Positions 2,962 to 9,957 of a DNA stretch of 53,471 nt are shown here, in pieces. Both the position numbers and the translations under genes were made by a program. The notes beneath the pieces were generated by a model, which had not been told where the DNA came from, did not search any database, and was given only the letters and a program-made list of their open reading frames with translations. Position 1 is the first letter of the stretch. Each line of letters opens with the position of its first letter. Source of the stretch: Desulfobacterales bacterium (GTDB lineage Bacteria > Desulfobacterota > Desulfobacteria > Desulfobacterales > C00003060); NCBI GenBank assembly GCA_013375375.1, contig JABXJX010000003.1, positions 1 through 53,471 on the forward strand, in the 5' to 3' direction.

Positions 2962-3911
2962 AAACTTCGTCTATTCCGACTTGTATGAGCCTTGCTTTTA
3001 ACTCCGGCATATTATTCCTGTTTATTGCACTCTGCTTTTTGATTGTCCTTGGTGGGTGTAAAACAATGGAAGCAATGACTAATATGGGCATGACCTTCGG
3101 CGTCGCCACCGGTACGATTGACCAGGCCCGGGCTGAATCAATTAAAAAAAGCAGCATGGCCGTGGCCCGAACTTTCCGGGATATCACACCGGAACAGGAA
3201 TATTACATCGGACGGACCGTCGGTGCTGTTATCGTTAACAGATACAAACCTTATAATAACCCGGAAGCCAATCGTTATCTAAATCTATTGGGACAGACCT
3301 TGGCCCAGGCCTCTGATCTTCCGGAGACGTTCGGTGGCTACCATTTTCTAATTCTTGACTCCGATGAGATCAATGCATTTGCCGCCGCCGGAGGCCTCGT
3401 TTTTGTTACCAGGGGAATGCTTGGAAACTGCCGGAACGAAGACGCCCTTGCAGCGGTCCTGGCCCATGAAATCGGTCACGTCCAGCTCAGGCACGGCCTG
3501 CAGGCGATTAAAAAAGCAAGTATCACTACAGCCCTGACCACCCTTGCCCTTGAGGGCGCCAAAACCTTCAGCGGAAAGGATTTTGCCAACCTAATGGGCG
3601 CCTTTGAAGGTTCCATCGCGGATATTACCGCAACGATGATCAATAACGGCTACTCACGGTCGTTTGAACAGCAGGCAGACAAAGCGGCCGTTGCCATACT
3701 CCAGCGGGGAGGCTACAACCCGAACGGTTTAGTCGACATGCTCAGGGTCATGCAAGACAGACTTAAACCGGACGGTTTTGATTTTGCCAAAACGCATCCA
3801 GCCCCTGTAAGCCGTATTGCGGACATTCAAAAGAGTATCGGACCTTACAAGGTCATTAATACCCCCGCGTCAAGGCAGTCAAGGTTTATGGCATTTCTGG
3901 GAGGCATATAG
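2958..3911 (+). CDS. M48-family zinc metallopeptidase lipoprotein
   Basis: Lipobox LGGC after a hydrophobic N-terminus. HEIGHVQLRH supplies the HExxH zinc motif, and the layout is M48/Ste24-like. Confidence 0.8.
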   Translation: MKTSSIPTCMSLAFNSGILFLFIALCFLIVLGGCKTMEAMTNMGMTFGVATGTIDQARAESIKKSSMAVARTFRDITPEQEYYIGRTVGAVIVNRYKPYNNPEANRYLNLLGQTLAQASDLPETFGGYHFLILDSDEINAFAAAGGLVFVTRGMLGNCRNEDALAAVLAHEIGHVQLRHGLQAIKKASITTALTTLALEGAKTFSGKDFANLMGAFEGSIADITATMINNGYSRSFEQQADKAAVAILQRGGYNPNGLVDMLRVMQDRLKPDGFDFAKTHPAPVSRIADIQKSIGPYKVINTPASRQSRFMAFLGGI

Positions 3912-3919
3912 ACAAAAAC

Positions 3920-6067
3920 ATGGCCGAGCGTTTCAACGTCGCTTCCAAGCTCCGCCAAGGCCTCTTGGTGGGACTAGTTGCCGCTGTGCTCACCCTGACA
4001 TTATATGCCTTAAACTGGCTGAACACCTGGGAAGCCAAAACCTGGGATTGGCGCGCCACCCTCATGGCCAAACCGGGCAAGGCCACCGATGATATCCGTC
4101 TGATTCTACTTGACCAGAACAGCCTGGATTGGGCCCATAAAGAGAATGGGCTGACATGGCCCTGGCCCAGAGAGATTTATGGCGCCATTGTAAACTATTG
4201 TCAACGGAGCGGTGCAAAAGCTCTGGCGTTTGACGTCCTTTTTACTGAGCCTTCCAAGTACGGCGTAGCGGATGACGCTGCCTTTGGTTCAGCCGTCTCC
4301 CGTTTCGGCCGCTTTGCAGGAGCAGTGTTTCTGGGGCAGCGGTCGGGAAGTATAATTCAATGGCCGGCGGATATTCCCAAGCCCGAACTCAAAGTCAACG
4401 GCCTGCAAAAATGGCTGGCCCACACCCAAGCTGGGAAAACTACTTTTTTTCGCGCAACCTTGCCGGTTCCTGAACTGGCGAAAAATTCAGCCATCCTGTG
4501 TAACACCCATTTAGATGCCGATTCAGATGGAATCTACCGCCGGATAAAGCTTTTCAGTATCTTCGACAACAAGGTCCTCCCTTCCCTTGGGATTGGCACG
4601 TATCTGGCGGCGGACCCAAAAGAAAAAGCCTTCATTCTACCCGGCCGTCTCATGATCGGTGATACGTCCGTTCCCATCGACCAAAAGGGGCATGCTGTTT
4701 TACGCTTCCGCGGTCCATCAGGAACCCATAAAGCCTATAGCGCCGCCGCAGTATTGCAATCTGAAATTCGGATTTTAAATGGTGAAGAACCAACCATCCA
4801 GGATAAAAATACCTTTAAGGACAAATACGTGCTCTTCGGCTTCTCGGCACCCGGACTATATGATCTGCGCTCAGCAGCGGTCGGCGGCGTGTATACCGGC
4901 GTGGAAGTCCATGCCACCATGCTCGACAACTTTCTTTCCGGCGATTTCATTCAAAATGCACCGCGCTGGCTGGTTGTTACCCTTGTTATTTTTCTTGCTG
5001 TTTCCGGTGCGGTTGCCGGATCTTTATTCACCAGCCTGTGGGGAATCGCTGTCTTGAGTACCGCCTATATTGCCATCCCGGTTTTTCTTTCCCTATTCGC
5101 CTATGTGTATGGGTTTTGGCTGCCGCTGATTGTTCCGGAAACAGCCGTTGCGACTGCTATTGTCCTGGCACTGGCCGTTAATTTTGCAACCGAGGGTCGC
5201 CAAAAGCGTTTTATCAAGAACGCCTTTAAACAGTATCTCAGCTCCACGGTGATTGAACAGCTGCTGCAAAACCCCGCACGCCTGAAACTGGGCGGGGAAC
5301 GCAAAATTCTATCCATTTTCTTTTCGGATTTGCAGGGATTTACCTCGATCTCAGAGGACCTGGACCCGGAAGCGCTGACTAACCTTTTAAACGACTACCT
5401 GTCGGCCATGACCGACATCATCCATGCGGAGGGCGGCACGGTGGACAAGTATGAAGGTGATGCCATCATTGCCTTCTGGAACGCGCCGCTTGATGTACCC
5501 GACCACGCTATCCGCGTGATACGGGCGGCGCTCCTTTGTCAGGCCAAGCTGTCGGAACTGCGGCCGGAGTTTAAAAAGCTGATGGGTAAGGATATGCTCA
5601 TGCGAATCGGCGTCAACACCGGCCCGGCCGTGGTGGGCAACCTGGGTTCAAACACACGGTTTGACTATACCATGCTTGGCGACGCCGTAAACTTAGCCGC
5701 GCGGCTGGAAGGGGCCAACAAACAGTTCGGCACCTGCACCATGATGTCGCAATCCACCAGGGAGCTGGTCGGGGACGTCTTTGCAGCCCGGGAACTTGCC
5801 CGGGTTGCAGTTGTCGGTCGCAAGGAACCGGTAACGGTTTACGAACCCATGTTTCCGGACGAATATTACGCTAAGAAAAAAATCCTGGATGATTTCGCAA
5901 AGGCCCTGGATCTTTTTTATAAAGGCTGCTTTGCCCAGGCCCGGGAAATTTTCTCATCCATCCAGGATGTAGATCCCCCTGCGGCCGCGTATGCCAAAAA
6001 ATGTAACGAGCTAATGGATTCTGTCCCTGATAGCTGGCAGGGGGTATGGGTGGTGACCACCAAGTAG
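3920..6067 (+). CDS. CHASE2 sensor domain / class III adenylate-guanylate cyclase
   Basis: N-terminal TM helix, a periplasmic CHASE2-like region and a cluster of TM helices. The C-terminal cyclase core reads ILSIFFSDLQGFTSISE..YEGDAIIAFWNAP..RIGVNTGPAVVGNLGS..YTMLGDAVNLAARLEG. Confidence 0.85.
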   Translation: MAERFNVASKLRQGLLVGLVAAVLTLTLYALNWLNTWEAKTWDWRATLMAKPGKATDDIRLILLDQNSLDWAHKENGLTWPWPREIYGAIVNYCQRSGAKALAFDVLFTEPSKYGVADDAAFGSAVSRFGRFAGAVFLGQRSGSIIQWPADIPKPELKVNGLQKWLAHTQAGKTTFFRATLPVPELAKNSAILCNTHLDADSDGIYRRIKLFSIFDNKVLPSLGIGTYLAADPKEKAFILPGRLMIGDTSVPIDQKGHAVLRFRGPSGTHKAYSAAAVLQSEIRILNGEEPTIQDKNTFKDKYVLFGFSAPGLYDLRSAAVGGVYTGVEVHATMLDNFLSGDFIQNAPRWLVVTLVIFLAVSGAVAGSLFTSLWGIAVLSTAYIAIPVFLSLFAYVYGFWLPLIVPETAVATAIVLALAVNFATEGRQKRFIKNAFKQYLSSTVIEQLLQNPARLKLGGERKILSIFFSDLQGFTSISEDLDPEALTNLLNDYLSAMTDIIHAEGGTVDKYEGDAIIAFWNAPLDVPDHAIRVIRAALLCQAKLSELRPEFKKLMGKDMLMRIGVNTGPAVVGNLGSNTRFDYTMLGDAVNLAARLEGANKQFGTCTMMSQSTRELVGDVFAARELARVAVVGRKEPVTVYEPMFPDEYYAKKKILDDFAKALDLFYKGCFAQAREIFSSIQDVDPPAAAYAKKCNELMDSVPDSWQGVWVVTTK

Positions 6068-6122
6068 GGGAGAAGATAGGGCACGCTCGGAACGAACGTC
6101 CCCTATCTCCTTTGACATTTTT
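6068..6122 (+). terminator. putative intrinsic terminator after the cyclase gene
   Basis: AGATAGGG (6074-6081) pairs with CCCTATCT (6101-6108). A T-rich tract (tttgacatttttt) follows. Confidence 0.45.
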
Positions 6123-6275
6123 TACCACAAGTGGTACCGGGTATATTGAATATTGTCAATAGGCAAATTTACCTGTTCCTCGTTTAAATATCAACATATC
6201 GGGCAAGTTTACAAAATAATCAATTGTTCGGCGAAATATCCACTTACCTGAACGAAGAATACGGAGACTGATAAG

Positions 6276-6809
6276 GTGAACGACGAAATCAACCTGCCGC
6301 AGGGTCGGCAGGTCGCTATGGCTGGTATCATAGGCGCCTTCTTTGGGATTGCTCCAGCTTCCCTCCTGCTCTTGTGCACGAAACCGCTGTTGCCGAAGGC
6401 CGCCTCGATTATTCTATTCACTGGCTATGCCGTCCTCATCGGCTGGCCGTTCACTTACTGGTGGTCGAAATCAATCCACGACCGGATTAACGAGCTGCAT
6501 AGCCAACTCGAGAAACGAAACGAGTTGGATCCCATAGAGAGAGACTACCTGCCTCGACGTGTGCCCTGGATGCCTGCATGGCTCGGCATCTTCGAGCGGT
6601 TGTTCTATTGTCTGCTCGTAGGCTTCGACATCGCAAGTGGCGCCACGTTCATAGGAGTGTGGATTGGTATCAAGGTGGCGGGGGGCTGGCAACTGATGAG
6701 TAAGGGCACTACTCTTGGCCGGGCGGTTTTGTTTTCTGGCTTACTCGGCAATGCAATGTCGGTTCTCTTTGGTGTCGCCTGTGGGCTGGTGCTGAAGCAG
6801 TTTCTGTAG
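6276..6809 (+). CDS. hypothetical multi-pass membrane protein
   Basis: GTG-start ORF with about 4 hydrophobic helices and no recognisable family. GC is host-like. Confidence 0.5.
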   Translation: MNDEINLPQGRQVAMAGIIGAFFGIAPASLLLLCTKPLLPKAASIILFTGYAVLIGWPFTYWWSKSIHDRINELHSQLEKRNELDPIERDYLPRRVPWMPAWLGIFERLFYCLLVGFDIASGATFIGVWIGIKVAGGWQLMSKGTTLGRAVLFSGLLGNAMSVLFGVACGLVLKQFL

Positions 6810-7047
6810 CCGCGATAAACCCGGTTGCCGAACAATCGTTTGCACACGGAGTGGCTGTATCGCGCAGCTATTATTATTCTTAAATATGTGTACATCCAGA
6901 CACTTACTTAAATCTGTCGTTTTCAACCGCCACCCAGTGAAACGTACGTTATTCTAAAGGCAGAAAGGTGTAACCCATATATCGAATTATAGATAAAGCT
7001 CATATTTTCCTACATAGTAATGAAATATTGAATAAATAAGGTGGGCG

Positions 7048-7593
7048 ATGAAGTCGTATAAGATCACTATAGAAGGAGAACAGTTTAAGAAGAGCTATTT
7101 AATATACGTCATAAAGATACATAACGAAAAACATGGTAGCTTCTTTTATATTGGTCAAACTGGCGATAGAAATTATCTGACTGCTAGGCCTCCGTTTCGT
7201 CGCTTGGCAGGGCACCTGGAAGATCGGAAAAAATCAACCCAGAATCAATTGTATAAGGGAATTGTAGAACAGATATTGAAAATAGAATCTGATGGAAAAG
7301 ATAACTACACCGATATTACGAAAAATACCGTTTCCAAGTTCTTAGAAAACAGCACCATTGAAATGCTTGTTTTTAGCGTTATCGATTTTAATGAACTAAT
7401 TGAAAAGAATGAGCATAAGGAAAACGTTAGATACGTTGAAAATGTAGAAAAGCACTTAATTCAGAAGTTGTTAAAAGCGAAGGGTTCGAAGAATGTTCTG
7501 AATAAAAAGATTCTCAATCCATCTGATGATGAGAAAGCAAATGTAGTCGCTTCCGAAATCTTTTCAGAGGTTCTAGAGAAGTTAAAAGTATAG
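7048..7593 (+). CDS. integron-cassette ORF, GIY-YIG nuclease-like fold (tentative)
   Basis: RBS AAGGTGG. The pattern YLIYVIKI..(10 aa)..FYIGQTGD..RRLAGH....VENVEKHLIQKL fits GIY / YIG / Arg / Glu spacing. The ORF is low GC and is followed directly by an attC site. Confidence 0.55.
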   Translation: MKSYKITIEGEQFKKSYLIYVIKIHNEKHGSFFYIGQTGDRNYLTARPPFRRLAGHLEDRKKSTQNQLYKGIVEQILKIESDGKDNYTDITKNTVSKFLENSTIEMLVFSVIDFNELIEKNEHKENVRYVENVEKHLIQKLLKAKGSKNVLNKKILNPSDDEKANVVASEIFSEVLEKLKV

Positions 7594-7662
7594 AATATAA
7601 CAAAAGGTTGTACGAGGATGCGCGGCAAAATCGCCGCGCACCTGTAAACCTTACCGTTCGAA
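7594..7662 (+). mobile_element. integron attC recombination site (attC-a)
   Basis: R'' is AATATAAC, then a 5-nt spacer. L'' GTT(G)TAC(G)AGG pairs with L' CCTGTAAAC, leaving two bulged bases. The central 8-bp hairpin is TGCGCGGC/GCCGCGCA, and R' is GTTCGAA. Confidence 0.7.
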
Positions 7663-7696
7663 CCGCCTGCGGCGGCGCGAATGCGGGTGAGGAAAT

Positions 7697-8464
7697 TTGA
7701 GTAAGATAATAAAAAGAAAGTATGGTGCAGTTATTTTGCTTGATGCGTTAGGGGCTTCTGGATTTTCGGACACCCAAATAAAAGAGTTTTTATCTGCACG
7801 ATCAGAAATAAATGAAATAATCAAAGACCTTTCAACGAATATGAAAGGGTGGGGGAAGTTTCATTCCCCCAATATTTACACTTTCGGCGATACAATTGTT
7901 ATCACTTTTGTACTTAGGACCAAAAAATACATCCCAGAACATATCAAGGGCATTGTTATATTAATGAGAAGATATCTTTTCCATTCCATGGAGAACGGTA
8001 TTCTTTTTCGCGGCTCCTTTTCCTTTGGCCATTTTATTGAGGACCCAAAGACTAATACGGTAATGGGTAAAGCTCTTTCAGATGCGGCATCTTGGTACGA
8101 ATTATCAGATTGGATGGGTCTTAATAGCACCCCTAGTTCAAATTCTGTCCTAGAATACTATTTCAACCACGCACCACAGTTCATAAACGATGCAAAATGG
8201 ATTCACCCTTATGATGTACCATTAAAGACAGGTAAAACAATTAATCTGTACTCGATATCATGGCCTGCAGCATTTTTTGACCCTTACTGGCTGAAAGATA
8301 AAAAGAAAGATAATCCCTCAAAATGGTTCCTAGAAATCCTGAAAGACCTTCCTGTTCCCAAAGGAACTGAATCTAAATATGAAAATATGAAAAAATATTT
8401 TGAATTTATTGAAGATAAGATTGCTAACAATCAAATCCAGCCGACCGCTGAAAGCGGCGGCTGA
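7697..8464 (+). CDS. integron-cassette ORF, minimal nucleotidyl-cyclase/palm-domain-like protein (tentative)
   Basis: TTG start after GGTGAGGAAA. The segments GAVILLDALGASGF.., ..YTFGDTIVITF.. and ..FRGSFSFGHF..VMGKALSDAASWYELSD follow the class III cyclase / GGDEF-type palm pattern (D..G, GD, G..G..A.R-like). The stop codon lies inside attC-b. Confidence 0.5.
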   Translation: MSKIIKRKYGAVILLDALGASGFSDTQIKEFLSARSEINEIIKDLSTNMKGWGKFHSPNIYTFGDTIVITFVLRTKKYIPEHIKGIVILMRRYLFHSMENGILFRGSFSFGHFIEDPKTNTVMGKALSDAASWYELSDWMGLNSTPSSNSVLEYYFNHAPQFINDAKWIHPYDVPLKTGKTINLYSISWPAAFFDPYWLKDKKKDNPSKWFLEILKDLPVPKGTESKYENMKKYFEFIEDKIANNQIQPTAESGG

Positions 8465-8479
8465 TTTATAGCGTTGGGA
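8422..8479 (+). mobile_element. integron attC recombination site (attC-b)
   Basis: The sequence TGCTAAC-AATCA-AATC(C)AGCCG-ACCGCTGAAAGCGG-CGGCTGATTT-ATAGC-GTTGGGA has the same architecture as classical attC sites such as attC-aadA7, including the AAC/GTT boxes and a single bulged C in the L box. Confidence 0.75.
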
Positions 8480-8596
8480 GAGTCAAAGATGACAAAGCTA
8501 GGATATTTCAATGACGCTCCAATATTAACCCCCGATGATGTGGAAATCAGTGGAAATCAGGGTCACATCTTCATTTATCATTTACCACTTTCGGTG

Positions 8597-9154
8597 TCAT
8601 GCTCGACTCGTTTTCCTCTTTCTCTTCCCACCGTATGCAGCACGGCCTTCCTTGATATCAAAACCAATTTTCTTTCGCGGCTTTTCTGGTGGTGTCATGA
8701 GTTCGTCAATCGCCTCAAAGACAACCTTAAACTGCTTGTCATATTTCTTTTCTAATGCCGCCAACTTGCGTGCAAGATCCTTATGTGTAGCCAGCATTTG
8801 GCGAAGCTGAGCAAAGGCTCTCATAATCTGAATGTTTGCCTGAATCGCTCTATCACTGTTTAGGACACTTGAAAGCATAGCTACGCCCTGCTCTGTGAAG
8901 GCAAAGGGTAAATACTTCGAATGCTGTCCCCTTTTTAAGGTCACACATTGTGACCTTAAAGATTGGTTTTCCTCTTTTGTCAGCTCAAACATGAAATCAT
9001 CGGGGAACCGTTTCACATTTCTTCTAACTGCCTGCTTCAAGACTTTCGTTGCCACTCCGTAAAGCCCGGATAGGTCCCTATCCAGCATGACCTTTTTACC
9101 CCTTAGCAGGTATATTTTTTCTGTGATTCTTTCCACCGGTACAAGACCTGTCAT
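8597..9154 (-). CDS. ORF6N-domain (KilA-N-related) DNA-binding protein
   Basis: The segment [70 protein letters not shown] is the typical ORF6N signature. The gene is low GC and inverted relative to the two cassettes. Confidence 0.8.
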
Positions 9155-9196
9155 CCAATAAAATCTCCCATCTTGTAATTGGGCACTATAATTTGC

Positions 9197-9242
9197 GGTT
9201 TGACCAAGCTGCCCTCCGGGTTCGGGAAAACCTTGTCAAACC
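9197..9242. repeat. 46-bp hairpin at the right edge of the low-GC island (possible degenerate attC)
   Basis: Perfect 8-bp terminal inverted repeat, GGTTTGAC ... GTCAAACC. It reads as RYYY-GAC / GTC-RRRY, that is the attC R boxes with a compensatory A>G / T>C change. It is shorter than typical attC sites. Confidence 0.3.
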
Positions 9243-9244
9243 AC

Positions 9245-9276
9245 AAAACCCCGCATCTCTTTCTTGAGAAACGGGG
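9245..9276 (-). terminator. putative intrinsic terminator (minus strand)
   Basis: On the minus strand, CCCCGTTTCTCAAGAAAGAGATGCGGGG is followed by TTTTG. It lies downstream of the 9414-9860 gene. Confidence 0.45.
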
Positions 9277-9413
9277 TCGTAGTATTCAGATCATGGCACC
9301 CTCTGTGATTGGGTTTAACGGGACATAAGCGTCTTAGGGCTAAGTACCAGCAAGGTGTTGTTGTGTCAAGGATTTGCGGGGGTGATGTTTGTTGTTACAA
9401 CTCTACACACCTT

Positions 9414-9860
9414 TTAACTCAAGGCCGAAGCGGCATTCAGTGCCTCCTTGGGAGTGGAGACATATTGCACCCCATCCATGTCGGGCCAGGTGGAGAGCCC
9501 GATAACAGGCTTTTTCAGTTTGAGCGCAATACTTATTTCAGACAGGGTGCCGTATCCGCCGGAGATCGCTATGAGCAGGTCCGAGCTTCGCACGATCAGT
9601 ATATTTCTGGCATGGCCCAGGTCGGTCACGATAGGAATGGTGACATAGGGGTTGGCATGGGACCTGTCCGGGCCGGGAAGGATGCCAACGGTCTTTCCTC
9701 CTGCCTCAGAAGCACCCCGGCAGGCACCTCCCATGACACCACCAAGCCCGCCGCATACCAGAATGGCGCCCATTTTGGCTATGCCTTCCCCGACCTTTCT
9801 CGCCTGCTCGTAAACCTCTTTGTCGCAGCTGCCTGCCCCGATTACACCGATCATCTTCAT
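9414..9860 (-). CDS. TIGR00725 / LOG-family (Rossmann, lysine-decarboxylase-like) protein
   Basis: MKMIGVIGAGSCD..LVCGGLGGVMGGACRGA..GKTVGILPG..IAISGGYGTLSE. I chose the ATG at 9860 because AGGAGG lies 6 nt upstream. Confidence 0.8.
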   Translation of the reverse strand: MKMIGVIGAGSCDKEVYEQARKVGEGIAKMGAILVCGGLGGVMGGACRGASEAGGKTVGILPGPDRSHANPYVTIPIVTDLGHARNILIVRSSDLLIAISGGYGTLSEISIALKLKKPVIGLSTWPDMDGVQYVSTPKEALNAASALS

Positions 9861-9957
9861 GGCATACCTCCTAACCCGGACAAGCCGGGACAAAAAAAGA
9901 ACTAATCACGTCTCTTCTCAAGGCGAAAAGCCGCAAAACACGAAAGTTTGTCCCTTC

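Follow-up and report, generated by a model that had tools for sequence, protein, structure and literature searches.

What is the low-GC (guanine plus cytosine) segment of contig JABXJX010000003.1 in which two open reading frames (ORFs) are each followed by a long hairpin, and does it belong to an integron? The contig (C117; 53,471 nucleotides (nt), referred to here in its entirety as the window) is part of a metagenome-assembled genome (MAG) of a Desulfobacterales bacterium (GCA_013375375.1; 2.18 Mb, 197 contigs, 87% complete). Our analysis reveals that positions 6226–8479 form an integron gene cassette cluster without an integron integrase (CALIN) that contains two genuine attC sites, a reading to which we assign a probability of about 0.9. 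This figure covers the identity of the segment as an integrase-less array with two genuine attC sites, and neither its origin nor the status of a further unit, cassette 0, at its left end. The array comprises two well-supported cassettes (ORF1 with attC-a, and ORF2 with attC-b) and, upstream of them, probably a third. GC content is 34–44% between approximately 6900 and 9000, compared with a MAG average of 48.2%, in agreement with the low-GC region noted in an earlier reading of the same DNA (the original prediction). The CALIN-like character proposed there is likewise borne out, by two attC sites, by cassettes that appear to move independently, and by the absence of intI from the contig.

A CALIN is defined as having two or more attC sites that share a strand and are separated by less than 4 kb, with no integron integrase nearby, and CALINs number in the thousands in sequenced genomes (10.1101/030866). 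In the window, the two sites, both on the + strand, fall within this distance (attC-a up to 7662, attC-b from 8422), and the integron-integrase profile TIGR02249 finds nothing on the contig. Of the adjacent intI and attI that mark a complete integron, the locus has no intI and no recognisable attI. The array resembles published CALINs (10.1101/030866) in having at least two co-oriented attC sites less than 4 kb apart with no integrase or intI pseudogene nearby, and in its small number of cassettes, the cargo of which has no known function and includes no resistance gene. It differs from them in nothing essential, its first attC being decayed and the MAG incomplete. The array is a common, previously described arrangement and leaves the current understanding of integrons unchanged.

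The two hairpins are genuine attC sites. As single-stranded DNA, an attC would fold into a hairpin of R and L boxes, the extrahelical bases of which would be recognised by the tyrosine recombinase IntI. In particular, attC-a (7594–7662, + strand) comprises R'' AATATAAC, spacer AAAAG, L'' GTT[G]TAC, a GC-rich central stem, L' GTAAAC, spacer CTTACC, and R' GTTCGAA, while attC-b (8422–8479, + strand) comprises R'' TGCTAAC, spacer AATCA, L'' arm AATC[C]AGCCG[A]CCGC, loop TGAAA, L' arm GCGGCGGCTGATT, spacer TATAGC, and R' GTTGGGA. In box order, the segments of attC-b between AATCA and the R' spacer read AATCCAGCCGAC ... GCGGCTGATTT, the right arm also being written GGCGGCTGATT. The spacers are 5 nt and 6 nt in attC-a, and 5 nt and about 5–6 nt in attC-b. 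In both sites R'' (..AAC) is 5' and R' (GTT..) is 3' on the coding strand, which is the box order of attC. Unpaired stem bases are confined to the 5' arm of the + strand (G7610, G7614, and A7618 in attC-a; C8438 and A8444 in attC-b) and the right arms are free of bulges, as is typical of the attC fold. As single-stranded DNA the sites have folding energies of −17 to −20 kcal/mol and z-scores of −4.4 to −5.2 (attC-a, −18 to −20 kcal/mol and z = −4.4 to −4.7; attC-b, z = −4.8 to −5.2), and none of 200 shuffled sequences folds as well. Each site lies directly 3' of a co-oriented ORF. The stop codon of ORF2 (8462–8464) is located inside attC-b, and the ORF2 tail ..QPTA(E/K)SGG is present, among family members, only in those with the same type of attC. 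The original prediction had described two co-oriented ORFs, each with full attC architecture, a stop codon inside the second site, and an ORF tail typical of genes running into attC; its coordinates and description are correct on each of these points.

Covariance analysis with models made from other loci recognises both sites. The first model, R1, was built in house from seven attC sites at three other loci (L007, L019, and L043) and contains no site from the window; one of its training sites (L043:1933–2003) sits behind a distant ORF2 relative (32% identity). The second home-made model, R2, comprises 34 sites, including sites from other contigs of the MAG and attC sites beside real integrases of the same genus. 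Searched against both strands of the entire window at E ≤ 10, R1 returns exactly two matches, both on the + strand and both directly after ORFs: attC-b at 8422–8479 (39.2 bits, E = 9e-9) and attC-a at 7599–7658 (16.4 bits, E = 0.037). R2 scores attC-b at 59.1 bits, a value inflated by two attC-b homologues in the training set, and attC-a at 25.1 bits over the full model (E = 3e-5), a value that is not inflated by the training set. The base pairs of R2 covary strongly, with 120 cells changed on both sides, as compared with 44 in shuffled controls and approximately 20 with slid partners, in an alignment that was fitted to the model and so biases the count in the model's favour. Rfam contains no match to attC-a or attC-b. 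Model scoring and folding had both been named in the original prediction as ways to check it, and both come out on its side.

The box layout of attC-b has a close counterpart in the aadA1 attC of In2/Tn21 on plasmid R100 (NC_002134.1 13475–13534). The two sites share the order CTAAC, AATNN, NNTC(A/C)AGCCGAC ... GCGGCT, 10 nt, GTT, with equal spacings and with two extra bases on the same arm. They differ in that attC-b has a shorter central loop and an R' of GTTGGGA; the window further differs from the aadA1 cassette in having cargo that is no resistance gene and an environmental host, probably of a Desulfobacterota type to judge from the source names of ORF6N homologues. The original prediction had likened attC-b to the attC of aadA7. 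The box-for-box alignment holds, whereas the name aadA7 is unverified, the verified site being that of aadA1: the 60-nt attC sequence that corresponds to the aadA7 quotation occurs verbatim in approximately 2000 plasmids and, in R100, is located directly after aadA1, beside intI1.

The strongest evidence for the array is that the ORF1 and ORF2 units are, as judged by sequence comparison with other arrays, separately mobile cassettes. A cassette would begin at the TT of one R' core and end at the G of the following one, which places cassette 1 at 6949–7656 (+ strand, 708 nt, GC 35.2%), with ORF1 at 7048–7593 (181 amino acids (aa)), and cassette 2 at 7657–8473 (+ strand, 817 nt, GC 38.4%), with ORF2 at 7697–8464 (255 aa). 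The ORF1 unit is present in Logan contig L017, with 94% nucleotide and 91% amino-acid identity, between two other ORFs. The homology to L017 extends from G|TTAT (GTTAT..) to ..AATATAACA, that is, AATATAAC-A, and the ends of the L017 cassette, AATATAAC and GTTATATT, are complementary at 8 of 8 positions on circularisation. The ORF2 unit has an 87% identical copy in Logan contig L007, where its neighbours are a Trypsin_2 cassette on one side and a unit of two genes (an ORF of 109 aa plus a RelA_SpoT gene) on the other. The DNA homology to L007 begins at the TT of the preceding R' and stops at AGCG|TTG, past which the sequences are unrelated. The ends of the L007 cassette, TTGCTAAC and GTTAGCAA, are perfectly complementary (8/8), as expected of a once-circular unit. 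In the window, complementarity of R'' and R' on circularisation is 7/7 for cassette 0, 5/7 for cassette 1, and 5/7 for cassette 2. Other relatives of ORF2 are flanked by attC sites on the strand of the gene in L019, L023, L030, L037, L039, and L043, and one, in L041, has an attC on its 3' side; the attC-associated relatives come from Acidobacteriota, Syntrophaceae, Methylomirabilota, and beta- and deltaproteobacterial MAGs. Because the same units occur in unrelated arrays with other neighbours, ORF1 and ORF2 are independent cassette cargo that are neighbours here by chance.

Comparison of the copies also reveals differences within the units. A GC-rich palindromic insertion of approximately 15 nt, CCGCCTGCGGCGGCGC, is present at 7663–7678, at the 5' end of the ORF2 cassette, and is absent from the L007 copy. 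The attC bodies of the ORF1 unit are unrelated in the window and in L017 (69 versus 88 nt; 7594–7662 versus L017:1515–1604), with the break located immediately after R'' AATATAAC, and a 60% identical ORF1 homologue in L130 is followed (after 1250) by a third, different attC body. A canonical G|TT crossover cannot yield this break; an exchange or deletion at the inverse core (R'') could, although it is doubtful that the attC bodies record such an event. An exchange at R'' might proceed by top-strand or left-hand-site recombination or, alternatively, by an R''-to-R'' deletion through which a gene becomes joined to the attC of the next cassette. If true, such exchange would re-pair genes and attC bodies, and would touch the unsolved question of how cassettes gain attC.

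Upstream of cassette 1, the segment at 6227–6948 (+ strand, 722 nt, GC 52.6%) is probably a further cassette, cassette 0, with a decayed long attC. It contains a 177-aa membrane ORF (6276–6809) and is bounded on the left by GTTCGGC (6226–6232, + strand; crossover G|TT), approximately 50 nt upstream of the ORF start, and on the right by attC-0 (6827–6954, + strand, 128 nt), which comprises GCCGAAC, AAT, CGTTT[G]CAC ... GTGAAACG, TAC, and GTTATTC and has an AT-rich centre that pairs poorly. GTTCGGC is the reverse complement, at 7 of 7 positions, of R'' GCCGAAC (6827–6833), which begins 18 nt past the stop codon of the ORF. The R' of attC-0 coincides, to the base, with the GTT at which the L017 homology of the ORF1 cassette starts, a boundary that was found independently. 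With filters off, R2 detects attC-0 at 11.4 bits (E = 0.035–0.098) and detects no attC upstream of the left junction, in 5900–6226. The 177-aa ORF has no family match in profile searches; its homologues in L112 and L113 (51–61% identity) have a strong attC (40.2 bits) approximately 22 nt past the stop codon, and the left arm of attC-0 resembles the L112 attC. Two elements of the original prediction fall with this assignment: the GC drop is no guide to the array's edge, in that probable cassette 0 lies to the left of the drop, and the 177-aa ORF, by its 7/7 R''/R' boxes and the attC-bearing loci of its homologues, is a probable cassette gene and not a native flank.

Further to the left, at the left edge of the variable segment, is a single copy (6083–6110) of a motif, ACGCTCGGAACGAACGTCCCC(TAT), that occurs seven times in the MAG. 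The other copies are on C178 (3242–3262, 3404–3430, and 4983–5009), C1 (7288–7305 and 7454–7479), and C138 (9385–9406). On C178 and C1 they include inverted pairs spaced by approximately 190 nt, reminiscent of the termini of a miniature inverted-repeat element. The motif resembles the GGGG.. ends of Tn3-family transposons.

No integrase gene was detected with the array. TIGR02249 has no match on the contig even when stop codons are read through, as the original prediction had anticipated in reporting no intI in the window, and the whole-genome search that it had proposed gives, for all six frames of the MAG, a best score of 82 bits against a cut-off of 265, with the IntI-specific region skipped. 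Two other assemblies from the same population match the region at 100% identity: a 93.5-kb ENA scaffold, which adds 1.4 kb upstream that contains housekeeping genes and no integrase, and a 6.9-kb Logan contig, which extends from the cyclase gene as far as the LOG gene. Of 31 relatives, 9 have an IntI that passes the TIGR02249 cut-off, 4 of these being among the 18 genomes of the same genus, and, among the same-genus IntI loci that were fetched, R1 recognises attC sites beside intI in three (strongly in G016 and G004, weakly in G010). The chromosomal integron of G016 (contig C44; intI at 3273–4208; divergent attC sites at 1957–2009 and 1163–1285) resembles the array in the window in that the same model recognises its attC sites and its cassettes are co-oriented. 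The same-genus integrons differ from the array in having IntI above the cut-off beside the cassettes, whereas the window has none. One candidate intI fragment in the MAG, on the 970-nt contig C165 (761–961, minus strand), encodes an 80-aa tyrosine-recombinase C-terminus that is 48–52% identical to the C-termini of same-genus IntI and is too short to call. The neighbouring ORF on C165 appears by eye to be IS91-type transposase-like, with zinc-binding CxxC motifs.

The MAG contains attC sites at other loci as well. Searched against all 2.18 Mb, R1 yields eight listed matches, which include attC-b, with attC-a falling below the listing. The seven further sites are distributed over five contigs: C178 (2441–2503 and 4239–4297), C189 (353–418 and 24354–24428), C187 (7864–7922), C141 (9424–9481), and C144 (28065–28139). 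All except the C187 site are located directly after an ORF on the same strand (GC 33–43%). C178 is a second CALIN, with three to four cassettes.

Several observations weigh against this assignment or parts of it. The models are home-made and drawn from arrays that share the 'CAGCCGAC..GCGGCTG' flavour of attC. Taken alone, attC-a is insignificant genome-wide, with its 16.4 R1 bits below the E = 1 listing for the MAG. The R' boxes GTTCGAA and GTTGGGA depart from the GTTRRRY consensus, a departure that is partly expected because, in arrays, the next unit supplies the bases after GTT. At the left end, attC-0 has a weak score (11.4 bits) and no folding advantage over shuffled sequence, and it contains a 13-nt motif, AACCGCCACCCAG (6925–6937), that recurs upstream of a 58% identical ORF1 homologue in L128 and L129 and is unexplained. 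The surrounding segment of approximately 20 nt, TTTT(C)AACCGCCACCCAG(T/C)GA (window, 6920–6941; L128:2469–2490; L129:61–82), is better conserved than the coding sequence and has no further copy in the MAG or the fetched loci. The MAG being 87% complete, an intI may exist in the unassembled part. Finally, no empty site is found in the relatives examined, because the region is a synteny breakpoint: the relatives keep SH3-M48-cyclase and LOG-ahbAB as separate blocks, and the flanks beyond each block differ from genome to genome. Two rival explanations are, in our view, highly improbable. The hairpins could be intrinsic terminators or genome-wide palindromic repeats in a generic acquired islet of low GC content with no link to integrons, in keeping with their position just past stop codons and with a simple terminator scan that flags the centre of attC-b. 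Yet neither full hairpin is followed by a T-run; the AAC..GTT cores, spacers, and one-sided bulges fit attC architecture; the covariance models match only these sites in the window convincingly; and homology to other arrays stops at G|TT. In addition, the eight R1 matches listed for the MAG, six of the seven on other contigs being directly after a same-strand ORF, rule out the genome-wide family of repetitive extragenic palindromic elements that the original prediction had raised as a possible alternative. Chimeric assembly of cassette-bearing DNA with chromosomal DNA, to which the 197 contigs of the MAG and the non-adjacency of the flanking gene blocks in relatives might point, is countered by the two other assemblies, the ENA scaffold and the Logan contig, in which the segment is 100% identical.

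Given that the segment is an integrase-less array, its origin is a separate matter, on which we lean only slightly to one side. The odds are a little better than even that IntI acting in trans placed at least one cassette in a non-att G|TT site, by an attG-type route. This route has the consensus GWT, and small CALINs may be such insertions (10.1101/2022.09.11.507474). In favour of it are the bare left junction, the shortness of the array, the lack of an intI pseudogene, and the several dispersed attC loci. The locus thus resembles attG or secondary-site insertions and single attC sites lacking an integrase (SALINs) (10.1101/2022.09.11.507474) in having a bare G|TT left junction that fits 5'-GWT-3', a short array, and further isolated attC loci in the same genome; it differs in that the insertion in the window is inferred, and attI or attC would account for a junction GTT equally well. 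Loss of, or separation from, an intI–attI platform is a serious possibility that falls short of even odds, and attG-type insertion is at least as likely as integrase loss. Tentatively, the array could be the stump of a complete integron, from which intI and attI were deleted or rearranged away and of which 6111–6226 is the residue of attI and the cassette promoter (Pc). Such a history would accord with the position of the array at a synteny breakpoint between two conserved gene blocks, with the solitary terminal-inverted-repeat-like motif at its left edge (6083–6110), which hints at transposon activity, with the complete integrons in same-genus genomes, and with a weak promoter-like site (6191–6220) that points into the array. 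Against it, the six-frame read-through search reveals no intI pseudogene on the 53-kb contig; nothing in the intI-proximal regions of same-genus integrons resembles the left junction, there being no general model of attI; the number of promoter-like sites is at chance level; and attC sites at five other dispersed loci in the MAG are hard to derive from a single decayed integron. The term 'remnant' in the original prediction, which implies a lost integrase, is therefore unproven, there being no intI pseudogene and no recognisable attI. With either origin, an array that lacks an integrase would be a passive store, and the cassettes with intact sites (attC-a and attC-b) could be excised or captured by IntI supplied in trans.

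On the right, the array ends at attC-b, because the ORF6N unit, the hairpin, and the repeat that follow show no cassette traits; the ORF6N gene and the repeat lie next to the array, outside it. The ORF6N unit (8480–9237, minus strand) contains a gene at 8597–9154 with a Pfam ORF6N match at E = 8e-34 and assignment to the PADLOC candidate family PDC-S05. The family is very large, with at least 8000 scored matches, and is multi-copy in the genus. As a candidate cassette the unit is rejected: it has no attC on either strand and no R'' box complementary to TTGGGAG, its relatives share only the coding part, and an attC is located within approximately 1 kb in only one of the scanned homologue loci (G011). 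The hairpin with GTTTGAC/GTCAAAC termini (9198–9241) is likewise rejected as a third attC, with R1 scores of 7.4 and 4.8 bits (E = 0.9 to 5), GAC/GTC in place of AAC/GTT, and a length of 44 nt. Of the third unit set out in the original prediction, the inverted ORF6N gene is confirmed and its status as a cassette is not; the terminal hairpin exists, as a weak fold (z = −1.8 to −2.8), and is not an attC.

A second ORF6N gene at the far end of an array is present in locus L108 (G011, contig C63). This is an integrase-less array of the same genus, with attC sites at 1772–1830 and 4178–4235 and an inverted ORF6N gene (5192–5803) approximately 950 nt past the last attC. The L108 ORF6N unit is located between direct repeats of approximately 95 nt (about 5025–5120 and 5900–5995). 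The recurrence may be coincidental.

The right limit of the variable segment is a repeat copy of approximately 160 nt with a terminator-like end (9238–9400, minus strand), just beyond which is the conserved LOG gene (9414–9893), linked with ahbAB in relatives. The repeat family, some copies of which are only 65–80 nt, occurs in the MAG and in same-genus genomes, and all copies start at the base equivalent to 9238. Other copies are at C97:695–856, C131:19060–19224, C42:21325–21392, C42:22057–22133, and C17:6373–6448. Read on the minus strand, the repeat has a TTGACA-type promoter-like start followed by approximately 100 nt and a strong intrinsic terminator, GACCCCG..CGGGGTTTT. To judge from these sequence features, the repeat could be a multi-copy small RNA gene; it has no Rfam match at E ≤ 1.

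Among the cargo proteins, ORF2 has no Pfam, NCBIfam, or PADLOC family match. Its predicted structure (predicted local distance difference test (pLDDT) score of 89) matches the catalytic domains of class III adenylyl and guanylyl cyclases in Foldseek at E = 9e-6, with template-modelling (TM) scores of 0.46–0.65, and residues D16, D65, and R105-G106, in the motifs LDALGA, FGDT, and FRG, are invariant in the family. On the basis of this model, ORF2 is predicted to be a divergent protein of the class III nucleotidyl-cyclase fold. The family, of approximately 250 aa and unannotated, recurs as cassette cargo in many phyla (L007, L019, L023, L030, L037, L039, L041, and L043), and is found also in contexts in which no attC was detected or sought, such as the WWE3 contexts L008–L013. 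The structure of ORF1 is predicted with confidence (pLDDT 93.6), and the model has no match in the PDB. A GIY-YIG nuclease identity for ORF1 is not established, the match being sub-threshold and confined to 4 of 31 family members (best E = 0.016).

For annotation, the label of integron cassette cargo can be given to three 'hypothetical' genes, and the 177-aa ORF is best kept out of the core genome. The MAG is an environmental case of cassettes scattered over several chromosomal loci, with integrase undetected and with integrons in some members of the lineage; scattered cassettes without a detectable integrase are the pattern predicted by the attG insertion route. The ORF2 family, which is cassette-borne in many phyla, is a reasonable candidate for functional testing.

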